Shown: in pieces, positions 2,846 through 42,345 of the stretch | Position numbering within the stretch: position 1 is the stretch's first letter | How the letters are laid out: every line of letters starts with the position of its first letter | NCBI GenBank assembly: GCA_035546575.1 | Contig: DASZWN010000002.1 | Span: 257,056 to 321,055 of the forward strand | DNA length: 64,000 nucleotides | From: Minisyncoccota bacterium | Lineage (GTDB): Bacteria; Patescibacteriota; Minisyncoccia; Phycocordibacterales; SBAW01 | Direction: 5' to 3' | Program-made: the position numbers and the translations under genes | The notes under the pieces: model-generated | What the model was told of the DNA's origin: nothing | The model's database searches: none | The model's input: only the letters and a program-made list of their open reading frames with translations

Positions 2846-3361
2846 TTATAACTTCCTGCCGTCATACGCCCAATGCAGCACCGCCTGCCGTTGTCTGGCG
2901 TGGCAGGCAAAGTCCCCTTTGCGGCAATGCTTTTTAATCTGCGCGATATGCCGGCGAATAGCTATCCAGCGTTTAATTTGCCTGTCGTCATCGGGCCCGC
3001 GTCGACCCGTGTAGTACCGGCAATACCATTGAAACCAGCCGCGCGGGTCGTCTTTATATATCCAGCCCTTCTTGCGCCAGACCGAGAGCGGCTGGCTGGC
3101 GTTGACGCGAAAAAAGTTGAGGTTCGGGTCGTGCACATAGCTCCCCTTCTTTTGAAACTTGGCTTTCGCAAACCAGTCCTTGGGGAATTCCTTGCCGCAG
3201 TCGCGCATGTACACCCCGCCAAAGACTCCGAGCGCAAGCATTTGCTTGGGAGTGAGTTCCGGCTTGAAGCGCGAGTCGAAGCGTCTCCCTACTGGTTCGC
3301 TACGAATGTAGCGGTAGCCCCGCTGCATCCGATCGTTCACCACAATAGTGCGCGGTTCCAC
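2846..3361 (-). CDS. conserved hypothetical protein, basic and Trp/Tyr-rich
   Basis: 171 aa ORF with coding-like composition; family not recognised by me. Confidence 0.4.
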   Translation of the reverse strand: MEPRTIVVNDRMQRGYRYIRSEPVGRRFDSRFKPELTPKQMLALGVFGGVYMRDCGKEFPKDWFAKAKFQKKGSYVHDPNLNFFRVNASQPLSVWRKKGWIYKDDPRGWFQWYCRYYTGRRGPDDDRQIKRWIAIRRHIAQIKKHCRKGDFACHARQRQAVLHWAYDGRKL

Positions 3362-3452
3362 AGTGTTATTGTATCCGAAGACGAAGATAAAAAGAAAGCA
3401 TAAAAAGGTAACGATGGAATAAGATTGTGCTAAATTTTGTAGCCTGTTTAAA

Positions 3453-3668
3453 TTACTTTATCTCAACGTTCTTCGCGAGAGTCTTGAATCGTTCACCGTT
3501 TCCCTGCAATACAGTAATGGTCACAGCTCCGGTTTTACTCGTCTTTATATCTTGGACTGTTCCCGATTTACCCGCATGCGTGCCAGCAACAACCTTACAC
3601 TTAGCACCATCTTTCAATTTTTTATTTGATGTCTGTTTCATTGAATACATTATGCCATTAGAATCCAT
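3453..3668 (-). CDS. small KOW-domain protein; start uncertain (3668, 3650 or 3641)
   Basis: GAKCKVVAGTHAGKSGTV is a KOW-like motif; the ORF-track start overlaps the upstream terminator hairpin, so the true start must be an internal Met. Confidence 0.4.
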   Translation of the reverse strand: MDSNGIMYSMKQTSNKKLKDGAKCKVVAGTHAGKSGTVQDIKTSKTGAVTITVLQGNGERFKTLAKNVEIK

Positions 3669-3672
3669 AATC

Positions 3673-3700
3673 AAAAAGACCCGCAATTGCGGGTCTTTTT
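3673..3700. terminator. rho-independent terminator (bidirectional hairpin) after the hsp20 gene
   Basis: AAAAAGACCCGCAATTGCGGGTCTTTTT. Confidence 0.8.
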
Positions 3701-3702
3701 GA

Positions 3703-4206
3703 TTACTCAACATCTATCTTGACGCGTTTCTTCATTTCTTCTTCCGACTTCGGGAGAGTGATTGTGAGGACTCCGTTTTTAGATTTTGCCACAATGGAAT
3801 CCTTGTTCACCCGAGCAGGCAACGAAAATTCGCGCCTGAACTCTCCGTACTCTCTCTCATATCGGTAGACCTTACCATTCTTTTCGTCTTTATTTTCTTT
3901 TTCGATCTTTCCCGACAGTGAGAGATAGTCGTCCCCAACTTCTACATTGATATCTTTCGGATCAATACCAGGAACATTGGCTGTTACCTTGATTTCATTG
4001 TCCGTCTCTTCGACATCAACCTTAGGGAAGACTGTTGAGACATTACCAAGCCCGCGACTTCGGAAGAGACTCGGCGTCATCATGTTGAACGGATCCCACA
4101 CAGAATCGTCGAAGAATCTATCAATGAGAGAGAAGGGGCTCGCGAAGTCATCGCGTCGAGACAGTGCCTGATTCTGGTTATCTCTCTTTTGGATTTCTGT
4201 TTTCAT
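3703..4206 (-). CDS. Hsp20/alpha-crystallin small heat-shock protein
   Basis: alpha-crystallin domain (EIKVTANVPGIDPKDINVEV...GVLTITLPK). Confidence 0.9.
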   Translation of the reverse strand: MKTEIQKRDNQNQALSRRDDFASPFSLIDRFFDDSVWDPFNMMTPSLFRSRGLGNVSTVFPKVDVEETDNEIKVTANVPGIDPKDINVEVGDDYLSLSGKIEKENKDEKNGKVYRYEREYGEFRREFSLPARVNKDSIVAKSKNGVLTITLPKSEEEMKKRVKIDVE

Positions 4207-4546
4207 ATCTTATGCGATTAACTTCTGGTAATGCCCCTTGTATTCGACCTCAAACAAGGGATTAGAATTCCTTACACACCAGCCTAGGGATGTTATCTCT
4301 GATTTCCCCTAGACTCTAGAGAACCTCTGTTCTCCTATTTTCGCTTCTCGCGATTTAATTACGCACTATTCAATTTTGACTGACAGGAGATGCTAAGTGG
4401 CATCAGAAATTGAACGAATGAATTTCTTTAGCCAAGCACCTTCACTTTTTTGTCCTGCTAAAGTCATACAATCTTTATTTCTGCTTAGCGGTGGTCGACC
4501 ACTCCGCCTACACTTTATTAAACGCGAGAGTCCTCAAAAGGTGTCA

Positions 4547-4894
4547 TCAGAAATTTCTCCAAAAGTCTCTAAAAAACTTCTCCTGCTCCTCAAAGTATTC
4601 GTCCATAGCCTTCATTCTCGCTTCGGTTTGTTTTCTCATCTGTTCCAAATCTTTTTCTGTAATTGGAGTAGTCGTAGAATATGTCTTTGCCTTCCCATTC
4701 TCGTAAACAGTGACAACCTCACTGCGGAATCCGTACGGCGATTCAATAGCCAGAGACGCCTCCGAGGAAGTGGCTTGTGAAGTATTTAGTATGGGTACCT
4801 GCCTGGACTCGGGCTTCTTCCAAAGATATATATTGGCGAGGAAACTTACCACGAGCAAAGCAGACACAAAATAAAGAATCTGCCTATCTTTCAT
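4547..4894 (-). CDS. membrane-anchored hypothetical protein downstream of the ECF sigma factor (possible cognate regulator)
   Basis: N-terminal TM helix; immediately follows the sigma factor gene on the same strand. Confidence 0.4.
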   Translation of the reverse strand: MKDRQILYFVSALLVVSFLANIYLWKKPESRQVPILNTSQATSSEASLAIESPYGFRSEVVTVYENGKAKTYSTTTPITEKDLEQMRKQTEARMKAMDEYFEEQEKFFRDFWRNF

Positions 4895-4926
4895 ACCCTA
4901 GTAAACGAAGGATGAGCAAAAAGGTG

Positions 4927-5511
4927 TCATTTCTTGAGAAATCGAGGCTTAGTATATGCTCGTTTTTTCTGCCCAAAACCAGCCATGTCCTTAAGATATG
5001 GGTGAGCAGAAAGTTTTCTTCTCGTTCTAGAGAGATTGAGTTTCACCGCATTTTCTGTTGACTTTGTGATAGTTGCGATATCCTTAATTGATTTTTCGTC
5101 TTGGTAGTGCATGAGAAGAACGTCCCGATTTGATGAGGGGAGTGTTTGAATTGCATGCCAAAGTGCTTCGGCATCACTTTTGCGTTCAATATCCTCCGTG
5201 ACCTCATATGGTATATCTTCAACGTCTTCGATTGGTACCGATTTTGGTTTGCGGTAGTGGTCTATGAGAAGATGCCGGGCTATCGTTAAAAGATATGTCA
5301 GGTATGAATATCCTCTAATACGGAATTTTTGTAAATTCTGAAACGCCTTCAAAAAAGTCTCTTGCATTAAATCTTCCGACAGCGCTTTGTCGTGACCGGT
5401 TCGATACCAGAAATAATTAAATACTTTATCCGCGTATTTCTTGTACAGATCTTCAAAAGACTTTGGATCGCCTTTAGCAATTTCTACGAGTTTTGTATCT
5501 TCATTATTCAC
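4927..5511 (-). CDS. RNA polymerase sigma-70 factor, ECF subfamily
   Basis: sigma-70 regions 2 and 4 (FLKAFQNL...; DVLLMHYQDEKSIKDIATI). Confidence 0.85.
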   Translation of the reverse strand: MNNEDTKLVEIAKGDPKSFEDLYKKYADKVFNYFWYRTGHDKALSEDLMQETFLKAFQNLQKFRIRGYSYLTYLLTIARHLLIDHYRKPKSVPIEDVEDIPYEVTEDIERKSDAEALWHAIQTLPSSNRDVLLMHYQDEKSIKDIATITKSTENAVKLNLSRTRRKLSAHPYLKDMAGFGQKKRAYTKPRFLKK

Positions 5512-21509: not shown

Positions 21510-22418
21510 GTGCACAAGCCAAAAATCATCGCTATCGTTGGTCCTACCGCCTCGGGCAAGTCTGCCCTTGGTATTTTTCTCGCGCAAAAGCTCAGGCGCC
21601 TGCCTGCCGGTAGGCAGGGCGAGATCATCTCTGCCGATTCTCGGCAGGTATACAAAGGCCTCGATATAGGGACCGGCAAAGTAACCAAAAAAGAGATGGC
21701 TGGTATTTCCCACCACCTGCTTGATGTGGCCTCACCTAAAAAAGTATTTACTGTCGACGACTTTATAAAAAAAGCCTCTGCTACAATCACTACCATATAT
21801 GGTAGTGGCCATACGCCGATTATTGTGGGTGGTACCGGCTTGTATATCGATGCGCTTCTGGGCCGCATAAGCATCCCCAGCGTACCGCCCAACGAAGAGC
21901 TACGTACGCAGCTGGAGAAAAAGAGTGCTACTACGCTATTGAAAATACTCCAAAGACTCGACCCCGAGCGCGCTGAAACAGTCGACCAAAAAAACCCTCG
22001 CAGGCTTGTCCGCGCTATCGAGATAGCCAGGGCAATCGGCAAAACTCCGCCCAAAAAAATCGAGGAAAAGTACGAGATCCTATGGCTCGGCCTGAATCCG
22101 TCTGACCAGGTACTCAAGAAAAATATCCATACTCGCCTGCTTGTCCGCATGAAATTAGGAATGGTCGCCGAAGCTAAACGACTTCACGCACAAGGCCTTT
22201 CCTACAAACGCATGCGGGAGCTCGGGCTCGAGTATCGATATCTTGCAATGTACTTGCAAGATACATTAACTAGAGGCGATTTTGAAATACAGCTTGAGCG
22301 CGCCATCTGGCACTACGCCAAACGCCAGCGCACTTGGTTTAAGCGCAATCAAGAGATCCATTGGATAAAAAACAAAACAGAAGCCCTACGGCTAGCAAAA
22401 GGCTTCCTTTCACGCTAA
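21510..22418 (+). CDS. miaA: tRNA dimethylallyltransferase (GTG start), with an in-frame palindrome A (RRLPAGRQ) after the P-loop region
   Basis: IIAIVGPTASGKS ... ISADSRQVYKGLDIGTGK. Confidence 0.9.
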   Translation: MHKPKIIAIVGPTASGKSALGIFLAQKLRRLPAGRQGEIISADSRQVYKGLDIGTGKVTKKEMAGISHHLLDVASPKKVFTVDDFIKKASATITTIYGSGHTPIIVGGTGLYIDALLGRISIPSVPPNEELRTQLEKKSATTLLKILQRLDPERAETVDQKNPRRLVRAIEIARAIGKTPPKKIEEKYEILWLGLNPSDQVLKKNIHTRLLVRMKLGMVAEAKRLHAQGLSYKRMRELGLEYRYLAMYLQDTLTRGDFEIQLERAIWHYAKRQRTWFKRNQEIHWIKNKTEALRLAKGFLSR

Positions 22419-22430
22419 TATAGCGCCATT

Positions 22431-22504
22431 GGGCGCTTAGTTTAGTGGTAGAACAGCGGTCTCCAAAACCGCTAGTGGGGGTTCGATTCCCTCAGCGCCC
22501 GCCA
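22431..22504 (+). tRNA. tRNA-Trp(CCA)
   Basis: anticodon loop CTCCAAA; CCA end encoded. Confidence 0.8.
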
Positions 22505-22509
22505 AGGTA

Positions 22510-22668
22510 TTATTTCTTAGCCTCTTTGTGCACGGTTTGAGCCCGGCACCATTTGCAGTACTTTTTGAGCTCTATCTTGCGCTCGACAAGCTTCTTGTTC
22601 TTTGAGCTCCAATAGTTGATCCGCTTGCACTTGGTGCAGGCGAGTTTTATGAGTCTATCTTGTGACAT
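22510..22668 (-). CDS. rpmG: 50S ribosomal protein L33
   Basis: hand-translated MSQDRLIKLACTKCKRINYWSSKNKKLVERKIELKKYCKWCRAQTVHKEAKK, with the L33 Cys4 pattern; under the ORF-track size cutoff. Confidence 0.75.
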   Translation of the reverse strand: MSQDRLIKLACTKCKRINYWSSKNKKLVERKIELKKYCKWCRAQTVHKEAKK

Positions 22669-22706
22669 GGCAGAGAGAATATACCCTATAACCCCTTATT
22701 TGGCAA

Positions 22707-23297
22707 CTAAAACTGCATGGCACCTTGGCAAAAGCTGAAACCAAGATTTTGTCCTGCATACAAAGGATTAACTCTCCAAGAAACACTCACCGTATATTTA
22801 AGTTGACACATTTGCGCTTCTGATAACCCAAGCTTGCTCATAAGGAATTTCTCCATATCTTGTCTTACTGTGCCAATTGGTTCCTGCAATAAATCAATAG
22901 TAAAAGTCTGATCTTGGTCTATATACTCTATAACATATGGGGGATTATCGCTGGCAGTAGGATCATCAATACCCTCATTAACATGTGGTCCTATGTAATA
23001 GTGACCAGGGTTTAGTGGATCTTTTGTAGTTGCTGGGTCATTTTTAAAGTCCTTTGCGGCTATTACTCCTCCTCCATATGCCTGTATTGAGCTTTGAGTG
23101 TTTGTTTGAGATGACGAATTAGATCCTGACGGTGAGTTAGTCACAACCGAAGTATTATTACCCGTACCTAGAGTTGTGGGATTATTGGTATTAGTATCAG
23201 GCTCACTCGAAGTGCCCGATATTAATTTCAAAAATATAAACGCGCATATTCCGATAATTACTACCGCCGCTATGATAATAGTTATGAGTTTATTCAT
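22707..23297 (-). CDS. membrane-anchored Ser/Thr/Asn-rich protein (AT-rich islet)
   Basis: N-terminal TM, low-complexity linker, C-terminal globular part; about 40% GC against roughly 55% in flanking DNA. Confidence 0.45.
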   Translation of the reverse strand: MNKLITIIIAAVVIIGICAFIFLKLISGTSSEPDTNTNNPTTLGTGNNTSVVTNSPSGSNSSSQTNTQSSIQAYGGGVIAAKDFKNDPATTKDPLNPGHYYIGPHVNEGIDDPTASDNPPYVIEYIDQDQTFTIDLLQEPIGTVRQDMEKFLMSKLGLSEAQMCQLKYTVSVSWRVNPLYAGQNLGFSFCQGAMQF

Positions 23298-23303
23298 ATA
23301 AAT

Positions 23304-24794
23304 TTAGTAGCCTCCATATTTGTCTACACACGCTTGAGATTGAGTATTGTCAGAATTCTGCACCCAAGGTTTATATCCGTCTTGTTGAACAAGGTATGCG
23401 GTTGTTTGAGCATTGCATAGATAGTTGTTAGCGGCTTCGAAACACGGTTGGCAGGCTGCAGTTTTAACTGCAACTCCATTTGCTCCTTTACACATTGCAG
23501 GACAGTTAAGTTCTCCTGTGGGGCTACAAGCAGATCCTACCAGCTTGTTTACTGTAATCATTACTTGCTGCGTGCCACAGGCATTACCATTACAACCAGT
23601 TGATCTGCCGCTATTCTCGGTCATAGCAATGCAAGACATCACATTAGCTTGCGCTGAGGTCAAACCTGCACTCATATAGGTATCTACACTGCAGTTAAGG
23701 TTAGTACATTGAGTCCCCGACCCTCCTTTGCTAGTCCTCCTAATCATAACCGGCTGCGCTATAACACTACCTTGAGCATTAACGCAGGCTTCCTGCTTGT
23801 CGTTATACGTACCCTGCTCGCAGGTAGCCACAACTTCTGTTGCAAGGACTGTGAGTTGAGCGCCTGGCGTACCCAGCACCTGTGTAAGAAGATCCCCAAT
23901 ATTTTTTCCTGTCGGCCTATCATCATTGTCTACGCATTCGATTTTATTCCACCCTTGGAAATACTTATCATTTAAGATCCCGTGCAAGATTGTTTCAATA
24001 ATAAGATAAGCGCCTAGAGCTACTACAAATCCTATAATGGCACTACTAAATATCGCTTTTGCATGCTCAATGTTGTGAAGATTGGTTGCAGAGGTGTAGT
24101 ACAACACTCCTGCCCACGCAAAGAGCGCCATCGCAATAGGAATGGAGAGACCAATTGCAAAGTTAATCACATTTTGTATGAGGCTCACTACACTGCAGGC
24201 TTGGCAGTCGGTGCCATTACATGGGATAAGACCACTTATCTGTCCGGAATTTGAGTTAGTAACACTATTACTTGTACCAGTAGTATTGGCTGATGTGTTA
24301 GTAGTATTGTTAGAATTGAGACTCGATCCTAGACTCCCCGCTTGAGGCGATTGCCCAGCAGCCTGAGATGACTGTTGCTGCGTAGAAGTAGGTTGAGGAT
24401 TTGGTACTACGGCTGGAGCGTCGGGACCGCCGATGTGGACTCTACCCTGAAGGTCGATGTAATTAGTTACTAGGAAATTACCGTCAGGATTTTTGATGTC
24501 TTGCCGGGTGCCAAGCTTGGTACCGGACGTATTCTTCCAGTCGGTGTACGTATAGACAAAGTTCGGCTGCGGCGAATCTATGGCAGATATAGCGCCATGC
24601 GTATCAATAAAATTACTAAAATATCTCCCGCTTATTACATCGTGCAAACCCTGTATTGTACCAACACCGTCACGGCCGGAATATGCGGTGTAAAAATAAT
24701 CGTTTGGAGACATCGGGGCAGCAAGAGCCATCAGCGGCAACAGGAGCCCGATACATGACGCAAAAAAGAGCAGGACACGGCGTCTAAAAGCCAT
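23304..24794 (-). CDS. secreted Cys-rich protein with an embedded VirB2/TrbC-like two-helix pilin-like domain
   Basis: signal peptide; S/T/N-rich linker; IQNVINFAIGLSIPIAMALFAWAGVLYY...AIFSSAIIGFVVALGAYLIIETIL matches the two-helix paralogs at 36007-37500; C-terminus has more than 20 Cys. Confidence 0.5.
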   Translation of the reverse strand: MAFRRRVLLFFASCIGLLLPLMALAAPMSPNDYFYTAYSGRDGVGTIQGLHDVISGRYFSNFIDTHGAISAIDSPQPNFVYTYTDWKNTSGTKLGTRQDIKNPDGNFLVTNYIDLQGRVHIGGPDAPAVVPNPQPTSTQQQSSQAAGQSPQAGSLGSSLNSNNTTNTSANTTGTSNSVTNSNSGQISGLIPCNGTDCQACSVVSLIQNVINFAIGLSIPIAMALFAWAGVLYYTSATNLHNIEHAKAIFSSAIIGFVVALGAYLIIETILHGILNDKYFQGWNKIECVDNDDRPTGKNIGDLLTQVLGTPGAQLTVLATEVVATCEQGTYNDKQEACVNAQGSVIAQPVMIRRTSKGGSGTQCTNLNCSVDTYMSAGLTSAQANVMSCIAMTENSGRSTGCNGNACGTQQVMITVNKLVGSACSPTGELNCPAMCKGANGVAVKTAACQPCFEAANNYLCNAQTTAYLVQQDGYKPWVQNSDNTQSQACVDKYGGY

Positions 24795-24839
24795 GCACTA
24801 ATCATAGCACCAGTTTTTGGTGCAAACCCTAGGGTGTGT

Positions 24840-24923
24840 GCGCCGGGCAGGATTCGAACCTGCGTAGCCCGAAGGCGACAGATTTACAGTCTGTTGTAAT
24901 TGACCACTCTACCACCGACGCGT
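24840..24923 (-). tRNA. tRNA-Tyr(GTA)
   Basis: anticodon stem-loop ACAGA-CTGTAAA-TCTGT, long variable arm, T-loop GGTTCGAATCC. Confidence 0.65.
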
Positions 24924-24961: not shown

Positions 24962-24991
24962 TAAAAGGCACCCTAGAAGGGTGCCTTTTGT
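24962..24991. terminator. bidirectional hairpin terminator (clpB 3' end)
   Basis: AAAAGGCACCCTAGAAGGGTGCCTTTT. Confidence 0.75.
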
Positions 24992-25005: not shown

Positions 25006-27705
<2,700 letters not shown>

Positions 27706-36006: not shown

Positions 36007-36288
36007 TTAGTGAGGCAGGGGCGCGTTGATCGTGTTCGCTACAATTTTGAGTATGGTATATGCGGCAACCATGATAAACATGCCGATTATCCCCCAGAGC
36101 ATATGTTGCTTCCCTTTTGATTTATCCGCTTCGCCTCCCTGCATGCCCCACATAAACTCGACAATGCCGTACACGAACACGAGCAGCCCTGCAGCAAAAA
36201 TAAGTGCAATGATCGGGTTGATCACTACGTTGGTAAGGCAATTAGCGATAGCCTCGGCGCTATCAAGACATCTGGTTGATGCACCCAT
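36007..36288 (-). CDS. VirB2/TrbC-like two-helix pilin-like membrane protein (paralog 1)
   Basis: hydrophobic helix, then a GG[E/D]-K loop, then a second hydrophobic helix; paralogous to the next three genes. Confidence 0.5.
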   Translation of the reverse strand: MGASTRCLDSAEAIANCLTNVVINPIIALIFAAGLLVFVYGIVEFMWGMQGGEADKSKGKQHMLWGIIGMFIMVAAYTILKIVANTINAPLPH

Positions 36289-36296
36289 GGGAGTTA

Positions 36297-36590
36297 TTAC
36301 TGGTTATTGTACTGCGGGACAGTCGGAGCCGGGAGTGCACCGCCGCCGCTGATGCCGAGCGTATTTTGCGCCAAACGAATGATGCCCCAAACCGATACCA
36401 TCACAAAGAGCGCTACGAGACCGGCTATCATAATATTGCGACCCTGCGTGTGGTCCTCGCCGCCGCTGATGACATATTTGACCAAGCCCCAGAAAAAAGC
36501 GACGAGCGCGAGTGCAATAAAGAGCGGTATAAGCGAGTTGAGGATCCCGCCTGCAAAAGTGATAAGACTTTGAAGATTATTACCTGGCAT
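36297..36590 (-). CDS. VirB2/TrbC-like two-helix pilin-like membrane protein (paralog 2)
   Basis: same architecture; the ...WGIIRLAQNTL motif is shared. Confidence 0.5.
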   Translation of the reverse strand: MPGNNLQSLITFAGGILNSLIPLFIALALVAFFWGLVKYVISGGEDHTQGRNIMIAGLVALFVMVSVWGIIRLAQNTLGISGGGALPAPTVPQYNNQ

Positions 36591-36661
36591 AAAAGTGGTT
36601 TACGAGTATGAGTTAACTCTAGCAAGAGCGTTGCACACTACAAGGAGTGCGTGTGGATAGC

Positions 36662-36997
36662 CTACTTGGCGTTGGGAGGAATAATATTAATAGGATTCCC
36701 TGTTGCTTGAGGCTCATTACTACCACCGCCTGTGCCTAGGAAGGTGTTGGTTAGTATTTTGAGTATCCCCCAGATAGAAAAGAGTACGAACAGAGCGATA
36801 AGTCCCCACAAAAGCGCCTCACGCTCAGGACCTTTGCCACCGCTCTCTTCTGCTCTTGTGACATAGCGCACACCGGAGTACATAAAGATAACCACAGCGA
36901 GCACGGTGAGCACCGGTATCGCAAGATTAATAATGCCTATCAAAAACAGGACAACATCTTTAATCGATGATGCATTGGAGAGCATAGTTAGCCGCAA
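36662..36997 (-). CDS. VirB2/TrbC-like two-helix pilin-like membrane protein (paralog 3)
   Basis: same architecture; ...WGILKILTNTF. Confidence 0.5.
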   Translation of the reverse strand: MRLTMLSNASSIKDVVLFLIGIINLAIPVLTVLAVVIFMYSGVRYVTRAEESGGKGPEREALLWGLIALFVLFSIWGILKILTNTFLGTGGGSNEPQATGNPINIIPPNAK

Positions 36998-37500
36998 GAG
37001 CTGATGCCAGTAACGCCCAATTGCTGGAGCGTGTTCATGATCACAGCGGCAATGAGCGAAGCGCCGACAAATATCCCGATACCGATAATGACGTTCAAGA
37101 AGTTGCTTCTCGCTTCGGTCAGCTCGCCGGGGTTGCCTTGCGCAAGCACGAACTTAAACCCAGCCCAGACAATAAAGAGTATGGCTACTGGAATACCGAT
37201 TACCATCACCGCCTTGAGCAGGCCGGTTACCAACCCGCAAACCGTTTTAAATTTTAGCGGGTTGCAGAGCGTGCCCGGCTGGCAGTCTGAAGGATTAACT
37301 GTATTCCCGGTAAAGCCTGCGTTTGGTCCACTACCGAGACCAGCATTAGGCCCACTTCCAGTACCTGCATTAGGACCTGAACCGAAACCAGCATTTGGCC
37401 CGTCAGTTGCGCCCTGCACGAACATGAGCGGCAAAAGAAAAACCACAATCGTAAAAAAGATACTTATTGATTGTCTGTATTTAAAAAGAAATATGCTCAT
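36988..37500 (-). CDS. VirB2/TrbC-like pilin-like protein (paralog 4) with a signal peptide, four SGPNAGxG repeats and a Cys pair
   Basis: signal peptide; tandem 24 bp repeats at about 37290-37400; C-terminal two-helix domain. Confidence 0.5.
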   Translation of the reverse strand: MSIFLFKYRQSISIFFTIVVFLLPLMFVQGATDGPNAGFGSGPNAGTGSGPNAGLGSGPNAGFTGNTVNPSDCQPGTLCNPLKFKTVCGLVTGLLKAVMVIGIPVAILFIVWAGFKFVLAQGNPGELTEARSNFLNVIIGIGIFVGASLIAAVIMNTLQQLGVTGISSCG

Positions 37501-38795
37501 CGTCGTGGCAAAAGTTGCTGCAAAGCCTGCGCGCCTTCCGAAACCGCGGTGGCCGGAGTCGACTTGCCACTCACCACAGATTCTATCATGCTCTGAAATA
37601 CGCTATCACTCTGGAGCGGGTTCGGGTCGAGCCAGCCGCGCGCAATAAGTGCCGACTGCACAAACACGCTCGCTGCAGCCGAGCCCGCGGTGTCAACAGC
37701 CACGTCGCGGCGCACCGGCGGCAAGCTGAGTGCCCCCGAGATAAGTCCGATCGAATTCTGCGCGCTAAACTTTTCGGCAACCGCCAGCGCGCCTTGGATA
37801 TTGCGGGCACTGCGCGGGATAGCAAAACCGGTGATGTGCGCTGTAGTTACCTGCGAAGTGTTTCCGTCGATCTGCGGCACCGACGCAACCGAAAAGCGGA
37901 GGTTAGGATTGCGCTGAGCGATGGCAGTATACTCACTCGCCAAGCCAAAGTAGACACCTACATCACCCGCCACAAATGCATCTTGCGCAGACGGCAGCGA
38001 GCGATTCCACGAGTAGCTCGTCTTACTTGGGTTTGCAAACTCGGTATAAAAGCGCAGCGCCGACTCTGCCGGGTTAGAAGTCGCACCTTCGGCATTGCTG
38101 CCAAACACCACCACAGGAGCGCCCGAGGAGTTACGCATGATTATGTTGTCGCCCACTTGCATAAAGAGCGCCGAAAGGATCTCTTTAGCGTTTGGGATAT
38201 TGCGCCACTCACCAAGCGCAACCGCGCTCTTTTTAACCGTGGAGCGGGAATCGAGCGAGGTTATCTTTGGTGCGATAGTCAAAAAATCGTTCCAATGTGC
38301 CGGAGGTGCCGCGATGCCTGCGGAGGCAAAGAGGTCGCGGTTCCAGTACATCACAAGCGGATCAATCGTAAACGGCAGCGCCAACTCCCCTTGCGGCGTC
38401 AAAAATATATCCGACGCGTCGACATACGAGGCGTTGTAGCTCCCCTGAGAGAGCGCACTGTATGGAATGGTAAGTATCTTGTCGGAAAACGAGAGCAGGT
38501 CGTCGCCCGAGAGCAAAAAGAGGTCGGGCCCACTGCCTGCGGCCATCGCGTTAACGAGCGTTTCGTTGTAGGAGCCCGCGTTTTTTTGCACGTAGGTCAC
38601 ACTGTCGAGCGATTTGTCGGTCGAGTGGAGCGTGTCGATAAGCCCCTGCATCGTTTGCGAGTCGAGCGTACCCCAGATGGTCACCTGGCCGATAGTTTTG
38701 CCGCCAAGCACGCCGCCAAACAGCGCAAAGACGCCGATGCCTACCATGATGAGCGAAGCAAATATGCCGAGAACGATTATCTGAAACGTGGACAT
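37497..38795 (-). CDS. membrane-anchored extracellular solute-binding protein (SBP family 1-like), orphan
   Basis: N-terminal anchor; ...LVMYWNRDLF and HWNDF hallmarks of SBP_bac_1; no adjacent permease or ATPase. Confidence 0.5.
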   Translation of the reverse strand: MSTFQIIVLGIFASLIMVGIGVFALFGGVLGGKTIGQVTIWGTLDSQTMQGLIDTLHSTDKSLDSVTYVQKNAGSYNETLVNAMAAGSGPDLFLLSGDDLLSFSDKILTIPYSALSQGSYNASYVDASDIFLTPQGELALPFTIDPLVMYWNRDLFASAGIAAPPAHWNDFLTIAPKITSLDSRSTVKKSAVALGEWRNIPNAKEILSALFMQVGDNIIMRNSSGAPVVVFGSNAEGATSNPAESALRFYTEFANPSKTSYSWNRSLPSAQDAFVAGDVGVYFGLASEYTAIAQRNPNLRFSVASVPQIDGNTSQVTTAHITGFAIPRSARNIQGALAVAEKFSAQNSIGLISGALSLPPVRRDVAVDTAGSAAASVFVQSALIARGWLDPNPLQSDSVFQSMIESVVSGKSTPATAVSEGAQALQQLLPRR

Positions 38796-38815
38796 GACTG
38801 TTGTAATAATGCGGC

Positions 38816-39361
38816 CTAGGCCGACTTTTTGCGAACGACAAATCCCCAATGGTATGCGCCTGCGTCTACTTTTGGCCCGATACTAAACCCGTGTTGCTCA
38901 AAAAGTTTCTGCGCCTTTTCTTGCGTAATAATATGGTCTGGGTGCGGCCCGAGGCCGCCAAACGAGCCTGACCAATCTATAACAAGTGCTCGACCGGTAT
39001 TTTTGAGCACACGGCGCATCTCGGCCAAGCATTCGCCGCGATCCTCCAGGCTAAAAAGCACGTTGGTAAGAAGCACGAAGTCGAACGTACCCGCGGGCAG
39101 GCTCGTGCCGCCGGCCTTTTCTATGTCTCCATGGAGCACCTCTACGTTATTGAGGCCCTCGCTGCTTGCTAAATTTTTGATGCGGGGCAGAAGCTCGCGG
39201 TTGATATCGACCGCCCATACCACCCCGCTCTCGCCTACCGCGCGTGCTGCCGCGCGGGTAAAAAAGCCCGCGCCCGCGCCGAAGTCGGCGACTTTAAGAC
39301 CCTCGTGTATGCCGGCGGCCGCAACCGCCTTGCCCGGATGTAAAAAAGCACTTTCCTCCAT
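38816..39361 (-). CDS. class I SAM-dependent methyltransferase
   Basis: VADFGAGAGFF (motif I) ... VIDW. Confidence 0.8.
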   Translation of the reverse strand: MEESAFLHPGKAVAAAGIHEGLKVADFGAGAGFFTRAAARAVGESGVVWAVDINRELLPRIKNLASSEGLNNVEVLHGDIEKAGGTSLPAGTFDFVLLTNVLFSLEDRGECLAEMRRVLKNTGRALVIDWSGSFGGLGPHPDHIITQEKAQKLFEQHGFSIGPKVDAGAYHWGFVVRKKSA

Positions 39362-41350: not shown

Positions 41351-41689
41351 TTATATTTTCTTAAACTTGATCCCTACTACACCATATTTTGCTTCCTCAT
41401 CGGCGAAGTAGTACTCGCGCATTTCTTCCACCTTCTTTTCTAAATCGTCTACACCAAACTCTTGGAGCGGGCGCAGGGCAAACAGCTCGCGGAACGATGG
41501 CACATGTAAAAGTTCGGTTACTTCTACCTCTTCTTTCTCTATAAAATCCGGGCGCAGTAAAAAGGTAAGTTGATCGCCTACTTTGATTCTTTGGCGCTTC
41601 TCGTCATTGAGCCGAGACTCGATTATCTGACTCCCCGTCCGTATCCGTGAGAAAGGCTCAAGATGCATCCGCATTTCATGCATATTCAT
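41351..41689 (-). CDS. ASCH (PUA-like) domain protein
   Basis: MHLEPFSRIRTGSQIIESRLNDEKRQRIKVGD. Confidence 0.6.
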   Translation of the reverse strand: MNMHEMRMHLEPFSRIRTGSQIIESRLNDEKRQRIKVGDQLTFLLRPDFIEKEEVEVTELLHVPSFRELFALRPLQEFGVDDLEKKVEEMREYYFADEEAKYGVVGIKFKKI

Positions 41690-41697
41690 AACTTGTG

Positions 41698-42345
41698 CTA
41701 TATACCAACTTGCCCTACACCTCCCGCCTCTTTTCTACATCGTTCACAAAGAGAAGTTCGGCCAATAACTCCAGGAGAGAATATTTGCGGAAAATATATC
41801 CCGCCGTTACTTGCTCGGTCTGAATATAGCGCACCGCATTTAGAGCAGACTTTTGCATTTAGATTCCCCGGTGGAGACACAAAACTTGAAGTGACCGATC
41901 CTCCGAATCCTCCACTAAATACCGAGGAGTTGGCGCCCGAAACTGTTACAAAAGTTTTATCTTCAAGTCTTTCTATTGCTCTTTTTGCCTTTTCCTCAAA
42001 ATTTTTTAGTTCGGCTTGAGCGTGTTCGATGGTGCCCTTTTTCCCTTTAATCTGTTCGAGGAGATTTTTTCCTTCGTCTTCGATATATTTTATGACCTCT
42101 CTACCGTCATCTCTTAGTTTCTGAGCATCCTTCACCATTTGGTTCTTCTGCTTACCGAGTTGTCGATATGCAATAAAACCAAAAGCGAACACGATTCCCC
42201 ATAAAATTGTGATGACCGTAAACAATACGGCAATTGCCGCTAAAATAGTATTTATAGGAGTCCACTGCTGGGTAAGAACTTCGTTGGCTTTTTGTAAAGT
42301 TTCAATAGTCTGCTGAAGAACCAGGATTTGTTGTTCTAGGTTCAT
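41698..42345 (-). CDS. membrane coiled-coil protein with a C-terminal CxxC...CxxC zinc ribbon
   Basis: TM helix, heptad-like region, CSKCG...CERC. Confidence 0.4.
   Translation of the reverse strand: MNLEQQILVLQQTIETLQKANEVLTQQWTPINTILAAIAVLFTVITILWGIVFAFGFIAYRQLGKQKNQMVKDAQKLRDDGREVIKYIEDEGKNLLEQIKGKKGTIEHAQAELKNFEEKAKRAIERLEDKTFVTVSGANSSVFSGGFGGSVTSSFVSPPGNLNAKVCSKCGALYSDRASNGGIYFPQIFSPGVIGRTSLCERCRKEAGGVGQVGI

Follow-up and report, generated by a model that had tools for sequence, protein, structure and literature searches.

A VirB2-like pilin domain fused to a putative lysozyme-like domain, with a paired membrane protein, at a conserved chromosomal site in Paceibacteria

Here we describe a two-gene locus in a 64-kb stretch of DNA (the window) from a metagenome-assembled genome of Candidatus Paceibacterota, a lineage of the Patescibacteria or candidate phyla radiation (CPR). 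The locus occupies an AT-rich segment, the islet, between the ribosomal protein gene rpmG and a tRNA-Tyr gene. It comprises orf496, whose product combines a VirB2-like pilin domain with a C-terminal domain that is probably lysozyme-like, and orf196, whose product O196 is a small protein with a predicted membrane anchor. As argued below, orf496 most likely encodes a VirB1-like peptidoglycan hydrolase that would be tethered by its VirB2-like domain. Genes were taken from an open reading frame (ORF) listing, tRNAs were placed with ARAGORN and selected ORFs were scanned with Pfam, yielding the gene order miaA, tRNA-Trp, rpmG, orf196, orf496, tRNA-Tyr, a hairpin terminator and clpB (Table 1). Both ORFs are co-directional and separated by a spacer of 6 nucleotides (nt). 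For comparison, one genome per GTDB species was scanned, which resulted in a sample of 79 related loci (individual loci are denoted by L and a number) whose flanks were identified by tblastn with the genes of the window and by ARAGORN. An earlier interpretation of the same DNA, made without database searches and called the sequence-only reading here, had recognized two genes for surface proteins in this segment and had suggested a horizontal acquisition or a hypervariable surface locus. Its placing of tRNA-Trp and rpmG at one end and its positions for rpmG and both ORFs agree with ARAGORN, the ORF listing and Pfam, while tRNA-Tyr, which it had placed at 24840-24923, is located by ARAGORN at 24838-24921.

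Table 1. Coordinates of the locus, its domains and its neighbours in the window (aa, amino acids; pLDDT, predicted local distance difference test score; AF2, AlphaFold2; GC3, GC content at third codon positions)
Feature	Position	Strand	Evidence and remarks
miaA (IPPT)	21510-22418	+	ORF; conserved downstream flank; tblastn matches in 50+ loci
tRNA-Trp (CCA)	22431-22504	+	ARAGORN; right-hand conserved frame; same place in relatives
rpmG, ribosomal protein L33	22510-22668	-	Pfam PF00471, E 1.1e-17; conserved neighbour downstream of the module
Promoter-like site TTGCCA-17-TATATT	22678-22706	-	38-nt spacer before rpmG; consensus scan only, 10/12 matches
orf196 (O196), 196 aa	22707-23297	-	ORF
orf496, 496 aa	23304-24794	-	ORF
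orf496 aa 358-496, predicted lysozyme-like (SLT_3-type) domain, 11 Cys	23307-23723	-	Pfam matches of homologues; invariant motif
orf496 aa 286-357, juxtamembrane connector and small Cys-containing beta module	23724-23939	-	Alignment; AF2 confidence low to medium
orf496 aa 191-285, T4SS_pilin (VirB2-like) two-helix membrane hairpin	23940-24224	-	PF18895
orf496 aa 126-190, low-complexity S/T/N/Q/P linker	24225-24419	-	Sequence; pLDDT <50; GC3 0.28
orf496 aa 27-125, orphan beta-rich N-terminal domain	24420-24716	-	No Pfam match
orf496 aa 1-26, Sec-type signal peptide (MAFRRR…LMALA|AP)	24717-24794	-	Read from the sequence; AF2 helix 2-23
tRNA-Tyr (GTA)	24838-24921	-	ARAGORN; left-hand conserved frame, in relatives flanked by clpB and the pilin gene
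Hairpin and T-run, likely clpB terminator	24963-24989	-	Terminator scan: 12-bp stem, 6 GC pairs
clpB	25006-27705	-	ORF; upstream flank, marker for synteny and relatedness; 62-94% aa identity in related loci
Four small T4SS_pilin genes, tandem array (93, 97, 111 and 170 aa)	36007-37500	-	PF18895: 28.9, 28.0, 23.7 and 38.6 bits

The product of orf496 is 100% identical to an NCBI protein annotated as 'pilin'. The T4SS_pilin family (PF18895), named after type IV secretion systems (T4SS), matches residues 202-266 with 28.0 bits against a gathering cut-off of 26.6 (E 2.3e-6) and is likewise matched by 27 out of 27 aligned homologues of orf496 (best E 5.7e-11). The AF2 model contains helices at residues 2-23, 195-234 and 239-273, a CxxxxCxxC motif precedes the hairpin, and W282 and C287 of the connector are conserved in the homologue alignment. 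The sequence-only reading had proposed the succession of an N-terminal domain, an S/T/N/Q linker and a pilin-like domain, which Pfam, the sequence and the AF2 model confirm. Its description as a 496 aa secreted protein is correct in length and coordinates, while the signal peptide and the two-helix membrane hairpin speak against a simply secreted protein. A signal sequence, as read from the sequence, followed by a hydrophobic two-helix hairpin that scores above the family threshold is also what characterizes VirB2/TrbC-type pilins (PF18895; PMC12102498, PMC12857230), and the same genome harbours a tandem array of four small pilins like those known from Patescibacteria. However, orf496 is no small pilin of ~70-170 aa: the pilin core of ~75 aa is embedded in a protein of 496 aa, with large extensions of ~165 aa on its N-terminal and ~210 aa on its C-terminal side, and the gene does not lie beside virB4 in the window. 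Three of the four array pilins exceed the PF18895 cut-off, whereas one stays below it (23.7 bits), and they share 19-27% identity with the pilin domain of orf496; the earlier claim that the same pilin-like domain occurs in orf496 and in the array is correct at the family level. The array is followed by a gene for an SBP_bac_1 solute-binding protein (37497-38849), and no VirB4 or VirB6 gene was noticed near it, where only selected ORFs were scanned with Pfam.

The N-terminal domain of orf496 has no Pfam match and no tblastn match in the 79 related loci, and when 1.84 billion representatives were scanned in full with HMMER, nothing came up except the protein itself and short, repeat-like matches in unrelated adhesins. 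A relationship to adhesins of the type IX secretion system of Bacteroidota (SprB, Y_Y_Y and others) was dismissed, as these matches are short and repeat-like and were judged to reflect beta-strand composition. AF2 places strands at residues 80-122 with pLDDT values of 70-80. VirB2/TraA-type pilins insert into the membrane with both termini outside and the loop between the helices inside. By analogy, orf496 would be anchored in the membrane with both of its flanking domains on the outside. Two further candidates were discarded: a match to PsaK, the sole one of a single-sequence phmmer search of orf496 against the PDB, is spurious, and a holin/endolysin-like protein with two transmembrane (TM) helices and a lysozyme domain does not agree with a hairpin that scores as T4SS_pilin, a Sec signal peptide and the missing phage context.

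The C-terminal region had been credited with more than 20 cysteines; the actual number is 15 after the pilin domain and 19 in the full protein. This Cys-rich region probably belongs to the lysozyme-like domains of the SLT_3/SLT group, as judged by the Pfam matches of its homologues and an invariant motif. Of the 27 aligned homologues, 14 match PF18896 (SLT_3, 'lysozyme like domain') and 9 match SLT (PF01464); when homologues of the isolated C-domain are considered (31-61% identical), 14 of 18 match PF18896 (best E 2.7e-10) and 6 of 18 match PF01464. The residues E393, G407 and Q410 are invariant in the alignment of the 27 homologues and belong to the motif C-I-A-x-T-E-N/S-S-G … A-C-G-T-F/Q-Q-I/V, the putative catalytic Glu393 being encoded at 23616-23618 within CIAMTENSG…ACGTQQV. 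A profile-profile comparison by hhalign with members of the same protein family that have a canonical SLT domain reaches a probability of 85% (E 6e-6) across the E…G.Q motif and pairs the motifs of the C-domain with E-S-x-G…G-L-M-Q of canonical SLT. When the C-domain profile was searched against the PDB, the top matches were all lysozymes or EmtA and aligned at the catalytic Glu, with sub-significant E values of 0.055-2. In the AF2 model, which has pLDDT values >90 for the C-domain, Glu393 ends a helix that is followed by a beta region, and this order of elements fits a lysozyme-like fold.

When compared to C-type lysozymes of glycoside hydrolase family 22 (GH22) and to family-1 lytic transglycosylases such as EmtA and Slt70, the C-domain shares the C-I-A-x-T-E-S/N-S-G … G-T-F-Q-I motif, which aligns to the catalytic-Glu helix and beta region of insect lysozymes and EmtA, and its nature as a small disulfide-rich domain. 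Unlike in C-type lysozymes, the position equivalent to Asp52 is non-acidic (Ala/Cys in 'NACGTQQ'), which is nearer to the lytic transglycosylases, and a Cys-rich insertion of ~30 aa further sets the domain apart from both groups, as do the sub-significant E values and a Foldseek search with the full-length model that finds neither. Transitive homology and motif conservation suggest that the C-domain is lysozyme-like, and a muralytic activity is predicted from the same sequence features.

The second protein, O196, had been described as membrane-anchored and rich in S, T and N, which is borne out by an N-terminal membrane anchor (aa 3-26) and an S/T/N-rich linker (aa 27-66); a predicted extracytoplasmic domain of ~130 aa (aa 67-196) follows. 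The residues E139, P140, R145, C164 and C190 are invariant. None of 68 O196 homologues contains a Pfam domain, and a match of orf196 to 'YxzE-like bacteriocin' was rejected as compositional since it reaches 17 bits against a cut-off of 40 and spans the TM segment and the linker. The AF2 model of the ectodomain has pLDDT values >95, and Foldseek searches with it found no structural match in the PDB (best E 0.49) or BFVD (best E 0.11). Judged from this model, the ectodomain may represent an undescribed fold.

The two genes are tightly paired. O196 directly follows the gene encoding the pilin and SLT_3 domains in 24 of 26 cases, and all 37 O196 matches in the related loci adjoin a pilin-fusion gene, copies outside the syntenic site included. 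One genome (VMHB01) harbours three such pairs (L049, L051 and L057). O196 is also found after pilin fusions whose C-domain is CHAP-like or of another type lacking a Pfam or PDB match (L018, L048-L057, L065 and L071), whereas fusions with a canonical SLT domain (L008, L017 and L033) are not accompanied by O196. Because O196 pairs with other types of C-domain and not with canonical SLT, a role as a fold-specific lysozyme inhibitor is disfavoured, and a partner of the anchor or of an assembly component, or a general regulator, fits better.

The fusion proteins at the syntenic site vary widely among relatives. They range from 300 to 780 aa, their N-terminal domain is present in some homologues and absent in others, and their C-domains are of the SLT_3 type, canonical SLT (PF01464; L008, L017 and L033), CHAP-like (a weak match below the Pfam cut-off in L029, and L018 by sequence) or of a type without a Pfam or PDB match. 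A distinct C-domain comprising the ~150 C-terminal residues occurs on the pilin fusions of L048, L051, L053-L057, L065, L068 and L071, which likewise have O196 after them. Positions with Cys, His, Gly, Asp, Leu and Glu do not vary in it and fall within the pattern …TSG..G.H…HG.G.K.D.R…CGN.YA.E…HWD. Its motifs H..G.K.D … HWD had suggested an M15/LAS metallopeptidase, for which the Pfam and PDB profile searches give no support. Tandem duplicates of the pilin fusion are present at the syntenic site of L022, L024, L026, L039, L041 and L042, and in L022 and L026 both pilin domains are about equally similar to that of the window. They represent local duplications of the module.

The variability is most apparent in the comparison to the closest genome, L008, whose ClpB shares 94% of its amino acids with that of the window. 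At the DNA level, blastn aligns clpB, both tRNAs, the region from rpmG to miaA and, as the sole part of the islet, a 227-nt pilin core (23989-24215, 76% identity). The fusion of L008 carries a canonical SLT C-domain (ESSGG…GCMQV…AYYQGAG), and the gene after it (L008 6940-7674) encodes a different membrane-anchored protein of 244 aa with an S/T/Q-rich linker and no Pfam match. As L008 differs in both, the partner gene appears to be swapped along with the type of C-domain. The sequence-only reading had considered a hypervariable surface locus, and this part of its interpretation stands: beyond the flanks and the pilin core nothing aligns with the closest genome, the type of C-domain and the downstream gene differ, and the identity of the partner protein does not follow genome relatedness.

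The arrangement raises the question of whether the two genes form an effector–immunity pair, in which a lysozyme-like domain displayed on the cell or pilus would serve to attack bacteria or lyse the host, with O196 as the immunity protein that guards the cell's own wall. T4SS effector/immunity pairs with peptidoglycan hydrolases as effectors are known in Xanthomonadales. In common with polymorphic toxin and effector–immunity loci, the locus has a conserved anchor module with swappable C-terminal enzyme domains, which diversify rapidly, and a small conserved partner gene that is adjacent, co-directional (6-nt spacer) and almost obligatorily co-occurring (24/26 and 37/37); both products are moreover predicted to be extracytoplasmic. 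An adjacent, co-occurring downstream gene is thus present, while a partner specific to one type of toxin domain is not found: O196 also follows fusions with CHAP-like or other C-domains, which is unexpected of a fold-specific inhibitor, and is missing from the fusions with canonical SLT. Moreover, an enzyme anchored by a hairpin is not obviously deliverable, and O196 lacks structural similarity to known lysozyme inhibitors. We therefore regard an effector–immunity pair as unlikely.

To place the locus in its genomic context, we compared the position of the pilin gene among the 79 related loci, all of which belong to Patescibacteria, most being labelled Paceibacterota or Adler-, Nomura- or Kaiserbacteria. 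The gap between rpmG and tRNA-Tyr is not empty elsewhere; the same family is found there. Both flanks, clpB upstream and rpmG/miaA downstream, are kept in 37 of the 79 loci, and one flank in 26 more, comprising 20 in which the contig ends on the other side and 6 with one flank only. At least one flank is thereby kept in 63/79; the gene lies clearly elsewhere in the genome in nine cases, and seven contigs are too short for a judgement. The conserved order is clpB–tRNA-Tyr–[pilin fusion ± O196]–rpmG–tRNA-Trp–miaA, and according to ARAGORN both tRNAs belong to the conserved frame in relatives. The rpmG genes of syntenic relatives are 80-96% identical, and the syntenic miaA homologue of L082 carries PF01715. 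For the two closest full-length homologues (P0002 and P0003, 48-49% identical), the synteny extends over rbfA-infB-aminotransferase-protease-clpB-tRNA-Tyr-fusion-O196-rpmG-tRNA-Trp. Among the closest cassettes, those of L082 and L083 lie in the conserved gene order too.

Because the gene order is conserved in relatives, the segment is not an inserted island, and the horizontal acquisition of a tRNA-flanked island suggested by the sequence-only reading is not supported. A foreign segment that entered beside a tRNA gene and owes its low GC to its donor would explain why tRNA genes lie on both sides and why the GC3 and oligonucleotide signatures are the most deviant of the window and its GC content the second-lowest (see below). 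A break of a 2331-bp Logan contig within tRNA-Tyr and within rpmG could be read likewise. Beyond the tRNA flanks and the deviant composition, however, the locus does not resemble tRNA-associated genomic islands. The two ORFs are the only ones between rpmG and tRNA-Tyr, neither an integrase nor another mobility gene being present, and no att-like duplication of the tRNA 3' ends was found, but merely imperfect repeats of 14-22 nt at chance level and unrelated to the tRNAs. The same family fills the interval in the 63 loci across Adler-, Nomura-, Kaiser- and other Paceibacteria, with the tRNAs as part of the conserved frame, and the modules of relatives deviate from their own flanks in the same manner. 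A genomic island is thus very improbable, and the islet is more probably a resident, anciently placed locus of the class Paceibacteria that holds a two-gene envelope module.

The islet had been called AT-rich with about 40% GC. Its deviant composition is confirmed, while the figure applies to orf196 only (38.9%), as orf496 has 46.1% and the whole segment 44.0% GC. The flanking genes miaA and clpB reach 49.9% and 56.2%, and with windows of the same size at 52.5 ± 3.3% the islet is the second-lowest region of the 64 kb. At third codon positions, orf196 shows the lowest GC3 among the 76 ORFs of the window (0.31) and orf496 reaches 0.41, compared to 0.53 for miaA, 0.66 for rpmG and 0.69 for clpB. 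Along orf496, the N-domain has a GC3 of 0.50, the linker of 0.28, the pilin domain of 0.43 and the C-terminal part of 0.38. Since GC3 is largely independent of the encoded residues and falls most, amino-acid composition is not the whole story and was ruled out as the sole cause of the low GC. A dinucleotide delta* of 177 (window 64 ± 27) and a tetranucleotide correlation of 0.24 (window 0.78 ± 0.12) both represent the most extreme values of the window, so that the tetranucleotide analysis, run over the 64 kb, identifies the islet as its most deviant stretch.

A comparison with relatives puts this deviation into perspective. Their modules have about the same GC3 as their miaA genes (mean difference 0.00 for the fusion and 0.03 for O196) and lie ~0.10-0.15 below their clpB genes, and the modules of 26 relatives differ from their own flanks by a delta* of 125 ± 40 and a tetranucleotide correlation of 0.47 ± 0.13. 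The module of the window, with a delta* of 186 and a correlation of 0.19 against its own flanks, is found at the extreme end yet within the range of the relatives. Because homologous modules deviate from their own flanks too, the seemingly foreign oligonucleotide signature is probably for the most part intrinsic to this class of genes, stemming from low-complexity linkers, TM helices and the Cys/Asn/Gly-rich domain. Specific to the present genome is only an extra drop in GC3, the deficit relative to miaA being 0.125 for orf496 and 0.225 for orf196. Rather than an inserted island, odd composition and fast turnover of the gene class probably account for the AT-richness. Low GC is not a uniform property of the surface-protein genes of the window, as the pilin array has GC3 values of 0.48-0.60 and the solute-binding protein gene of 0.66. 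A larger block of lower GC at ~3000-5500 (41-45% GC) contains genes for a sigma-70 factor of the extracytoplasmic function (ECF) type (4927-5511, GC3 0.36) and Hsp20 (3703-4206), so low-GC patches extend beyond surface genes. At 41351-42345 lies a further small patch of 42-45% GC, with genes for a protein that has an ASCH domain and for a TM/coiled-coil protein of 215 aa (GC3 0.35).

An old locus may nevertheless exchange its content in place. The C-domain and O196, perhaps together with the N-domain, could have been brought in by homologous recombination across the flanks or the pilin core from a Paceibacteria lineage of lower GC, which would explain the extra GC3 drop and would be compatible with the function proposed below. 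In agreement with such a replacement, the alignment with L008 is confined to the flanks and the pilin core, and the type of C-domain and the downstream gene differ. The identity of the pilin domain follows that of ClpB (Spearman rho 0.68, p 4e-6), whereas that of O196 is anti-correlated with ClpB identity (rho -0.78, n=12, p 0.003) and that of the C-domain is uncorrelated. In a neighbour-joining tree the O196 of the window groups with genomes of ~65% ClpB identity, and the GC3 deficit of its gene exceeds that of all 25 relatives. However, no donor of low GC was sampled: the closest cassettes, L081 (C-domain 69%, O196 58%) as well as L082 and L083 (48-52%), have GC3 values of 0.46-0.58 and belong to the near clade (ClpB 83-87%). 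The tree carries no support values and its branches are long, the same incongruence would arise if ancient allelic types had been sorted among lineages, and since nothing known is more than 69% identical, a transfer, if there was one, was not recent. Taken together, the pattern fits in-place cassette exchange and the sorting of old allelic types alike, and a replacement from a donor of lower GC is possible but rather unlikely.

The Logan contig mentioned above (SRR12170516, L001) is an independent assembly of ~22573-24903 of the window, and because it ends inside tRNA-Tyr and inside rpmG, the assembly graph seems to fork within the conserved flanks. Relatives in the same sample with these flanks and another cassette would be compatible with such a fork. 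An exact-match search of metagenome contigs of the Joint Genome Institute (JGI) for the species-specific clpB terminator returned no conspecific strain.

What might such a module do? A specialised peptidoglycan hydrolase, VirB1, is required by T4SSs: diderms have VirB1 proteins with an SLT domain, while in monoderms membrane-anchored enzymes with SLT and/or CHAP domains take this role, such as TraG (pIP501), PrgK and TcpG with a TM anchor, SLT and CHAP. The predicted orf496 protein resembles them in its lysozyme-like/SLT-type domain, which would be tethered to the membrane and contains the Glu and G-x-x-Q motifs, and relatives at the same locus have a canonical SLT domain or, at one locus, a weak CHAP-like match below the cut-off, which parallels the set of domains known from monoderm VirB1 analogues. 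It differs in that the anchor is a VirB2-like pilin hairpin and not a simple TM helix, the enzyme domain belongs to the Cys-rich SLT_3 subtype, the gene resides at a chromosomal core locus outside any T4SS gene cluster in the window and its activity is a prediction. We propose that orf496 would be exported by means of its signal peptide and stay anchored in the cytoplasmic membrane through the T4SS_pilin hairpin, with the variable N-domain and the disulfide-rich lysozyme-like C-domain (Glu393) facing outward by analogy with the topology of VirB2/TraA. The fusion might then bring peptidoglycan cleavage to the site where VirB2-type pilins are handled, which is the job of VirB1, and could open the cell's own wall for the passage of a pilus or channel or, more speculatively, the wall of the host at the contact site. 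O196 would serve as an obligate partner that positions or restrains the fusion. Domain architecture, synteny, gene pairing, the exchange of domains at the site and composition are observed in the present data, whereas membrane topology, enzymatic activity, the T4SS link and the role of O196 are inferred.

Several findings weigh against this proposal. With PF18896, orf496 itself reaches only 12.6 bits (E 0.19), where the cut-off is 27, the PDB profile matches of the C-domain remain sub-significant (E 0.055-2), and Foldseek with the full-length model against the PDB found no lysozyme or SLT and nothing with E<0.001, the best match (E 0.056) being unrelated; here the search is probably overwhelmed by the 45% of the model that is disordered. 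The function assigned to O196 is a guess, as it has neither a homologue of known function nor a structural match. Intrinsic composition leaves the extra drop of O196 unexplained, since its GC3 deficit of 0.225 tops all 25 relatives (maximum 0.20). Furthermore, a pilin domain with ~165 aa on its N-terminal and ~210 aa on its C-terminal side may be unable to polymerise and may be a mere membrane anchor. Lastly, no VirB4, VirB6 or VirD4 was noticed in the 64-kb window, where the ORF list was inspected by eye and selected ORFs were scanned with Pfam. Since neither virB4 nor virB6 was noticed among the ORFs of the window, it is the pilin domain that provides the link to a T4SS.

The same inspection noticed no T4SS ATPase gene, as would be expected if orf496 encoded a housekeeping autolysin, in which the hairpin is a plain anchor and the enzyme remodels the cell's own wall during growth or division without a tie to pili or secretion, the composition being that of a weakly expressed, low-complexity gene. 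The conserved core-genome position beside housekeeping genes and the module GC3 in relatives, which equals that of the ordinary gene miaA, are in line with this explanation. However, the anchor scores above the T4SS_pilin Pfam threshold in all 27 homologues and is not a generic TM segment, between close genomes no other part of the protein is as well conserved as the hairpin, and such variability of domain types between close relatives would be unusual for autolysins. We thus consider a plain autolysin improbable, to a similar degree as the effector–immunity pair, and retain the VirB1-like hydrolase tethered by a VirB2-like domain as the most likely interpretation. A bolder variant appears even less likely: a 'self-drilling' VirB2-type pilin at a fixed core site of Paceibacteria, whose subunit would pass from the membrane into the T4SS pilus and whose swappable hydrolase head (SLT_3, SLT, CHAP-like or of another type) on the filament or its tip would breach the host wall during epibiotic attachment, with O196 as a co-inherited chaperone or safety-catch of new fold.

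Patescibacteria are ultra-small, mostly uncultured epibionts, and how they cross their own wall and that of their host is an open question. The features described here point to the fusion of a pilin domain resembling VirB2 with a hydrolase domain resembling VirB1, next to an apparently obligate and uncharacterised partner, at a site that is syntenic throughout the class. Such a fusion, with its swappable hydrolase domains, and its partner offer concrete candidates for the missing wall-cutting activity, and the fusion would act as a 'Rosetta-stone' that connects pilin with hydrolase functions. VirB2-like pilins are both common and essential in the T4SS of Patescibacteria (PMC12102498; PMC12857230), and besides these T4SS and pilins no other such systems have been shown to be indispensable for growth on a host (PMC12857230). 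A survey found VirB2-like pilins in 1,948 assemblies, with VirB1 homologues being few, and came to the conclusion that VirB1 might be dispensable, while in Agrobacterium VirB1* promotes the formation of the T-pilus (PMC12102498). A 'self-drilling' pilin, if it exists, would also account for the VirB1 homologues that are seemingly missing from most VirB2-bearing Patescibacteria (PMC12102498). VirB2–hydrolase fusions are not mentioned in that survey (PMC12102498) and were not found by literature searches. As far as we found, the fusion is already annotated generically as 'pilin' or 'SLT domain-containing protein' and has not been described in the literature. For the calling of genomic islands the locus is a caution, as a tRNA-flanked, deviant segment can be an old resident locus of an intrinsically odd gene class.

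Some further features concern the borders of the module. The likely clpB terminator would mark the upstream limit of a tRNA-Tyr/orf496/orf196 unit, and the promoter-like consensus match in front of rpmG suggests that rpmG is transcribed separately. In a distant lineage (L011, L043, L045 and L050, ClpB ~65%), rpmG and tRNA-Trp directly follow clpB and the pilin-SLT_3/O196 pair lies between tRNA-Trp and miaA, so that the interval is unchanged and its internal order different. Among relatives (L004-L080), the orientations of tRNA-Tyr and tRNA-Trp flip independently and all four combinations are present, whereas the orientation of clpB, the pilin gene, rpmG and miaA is constant; blastn of the window against L008, L013 and L010 accordingly displays reversed tRNA matches inside colinear flanks. 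These flips hint at recombination at the borders of the cassette.

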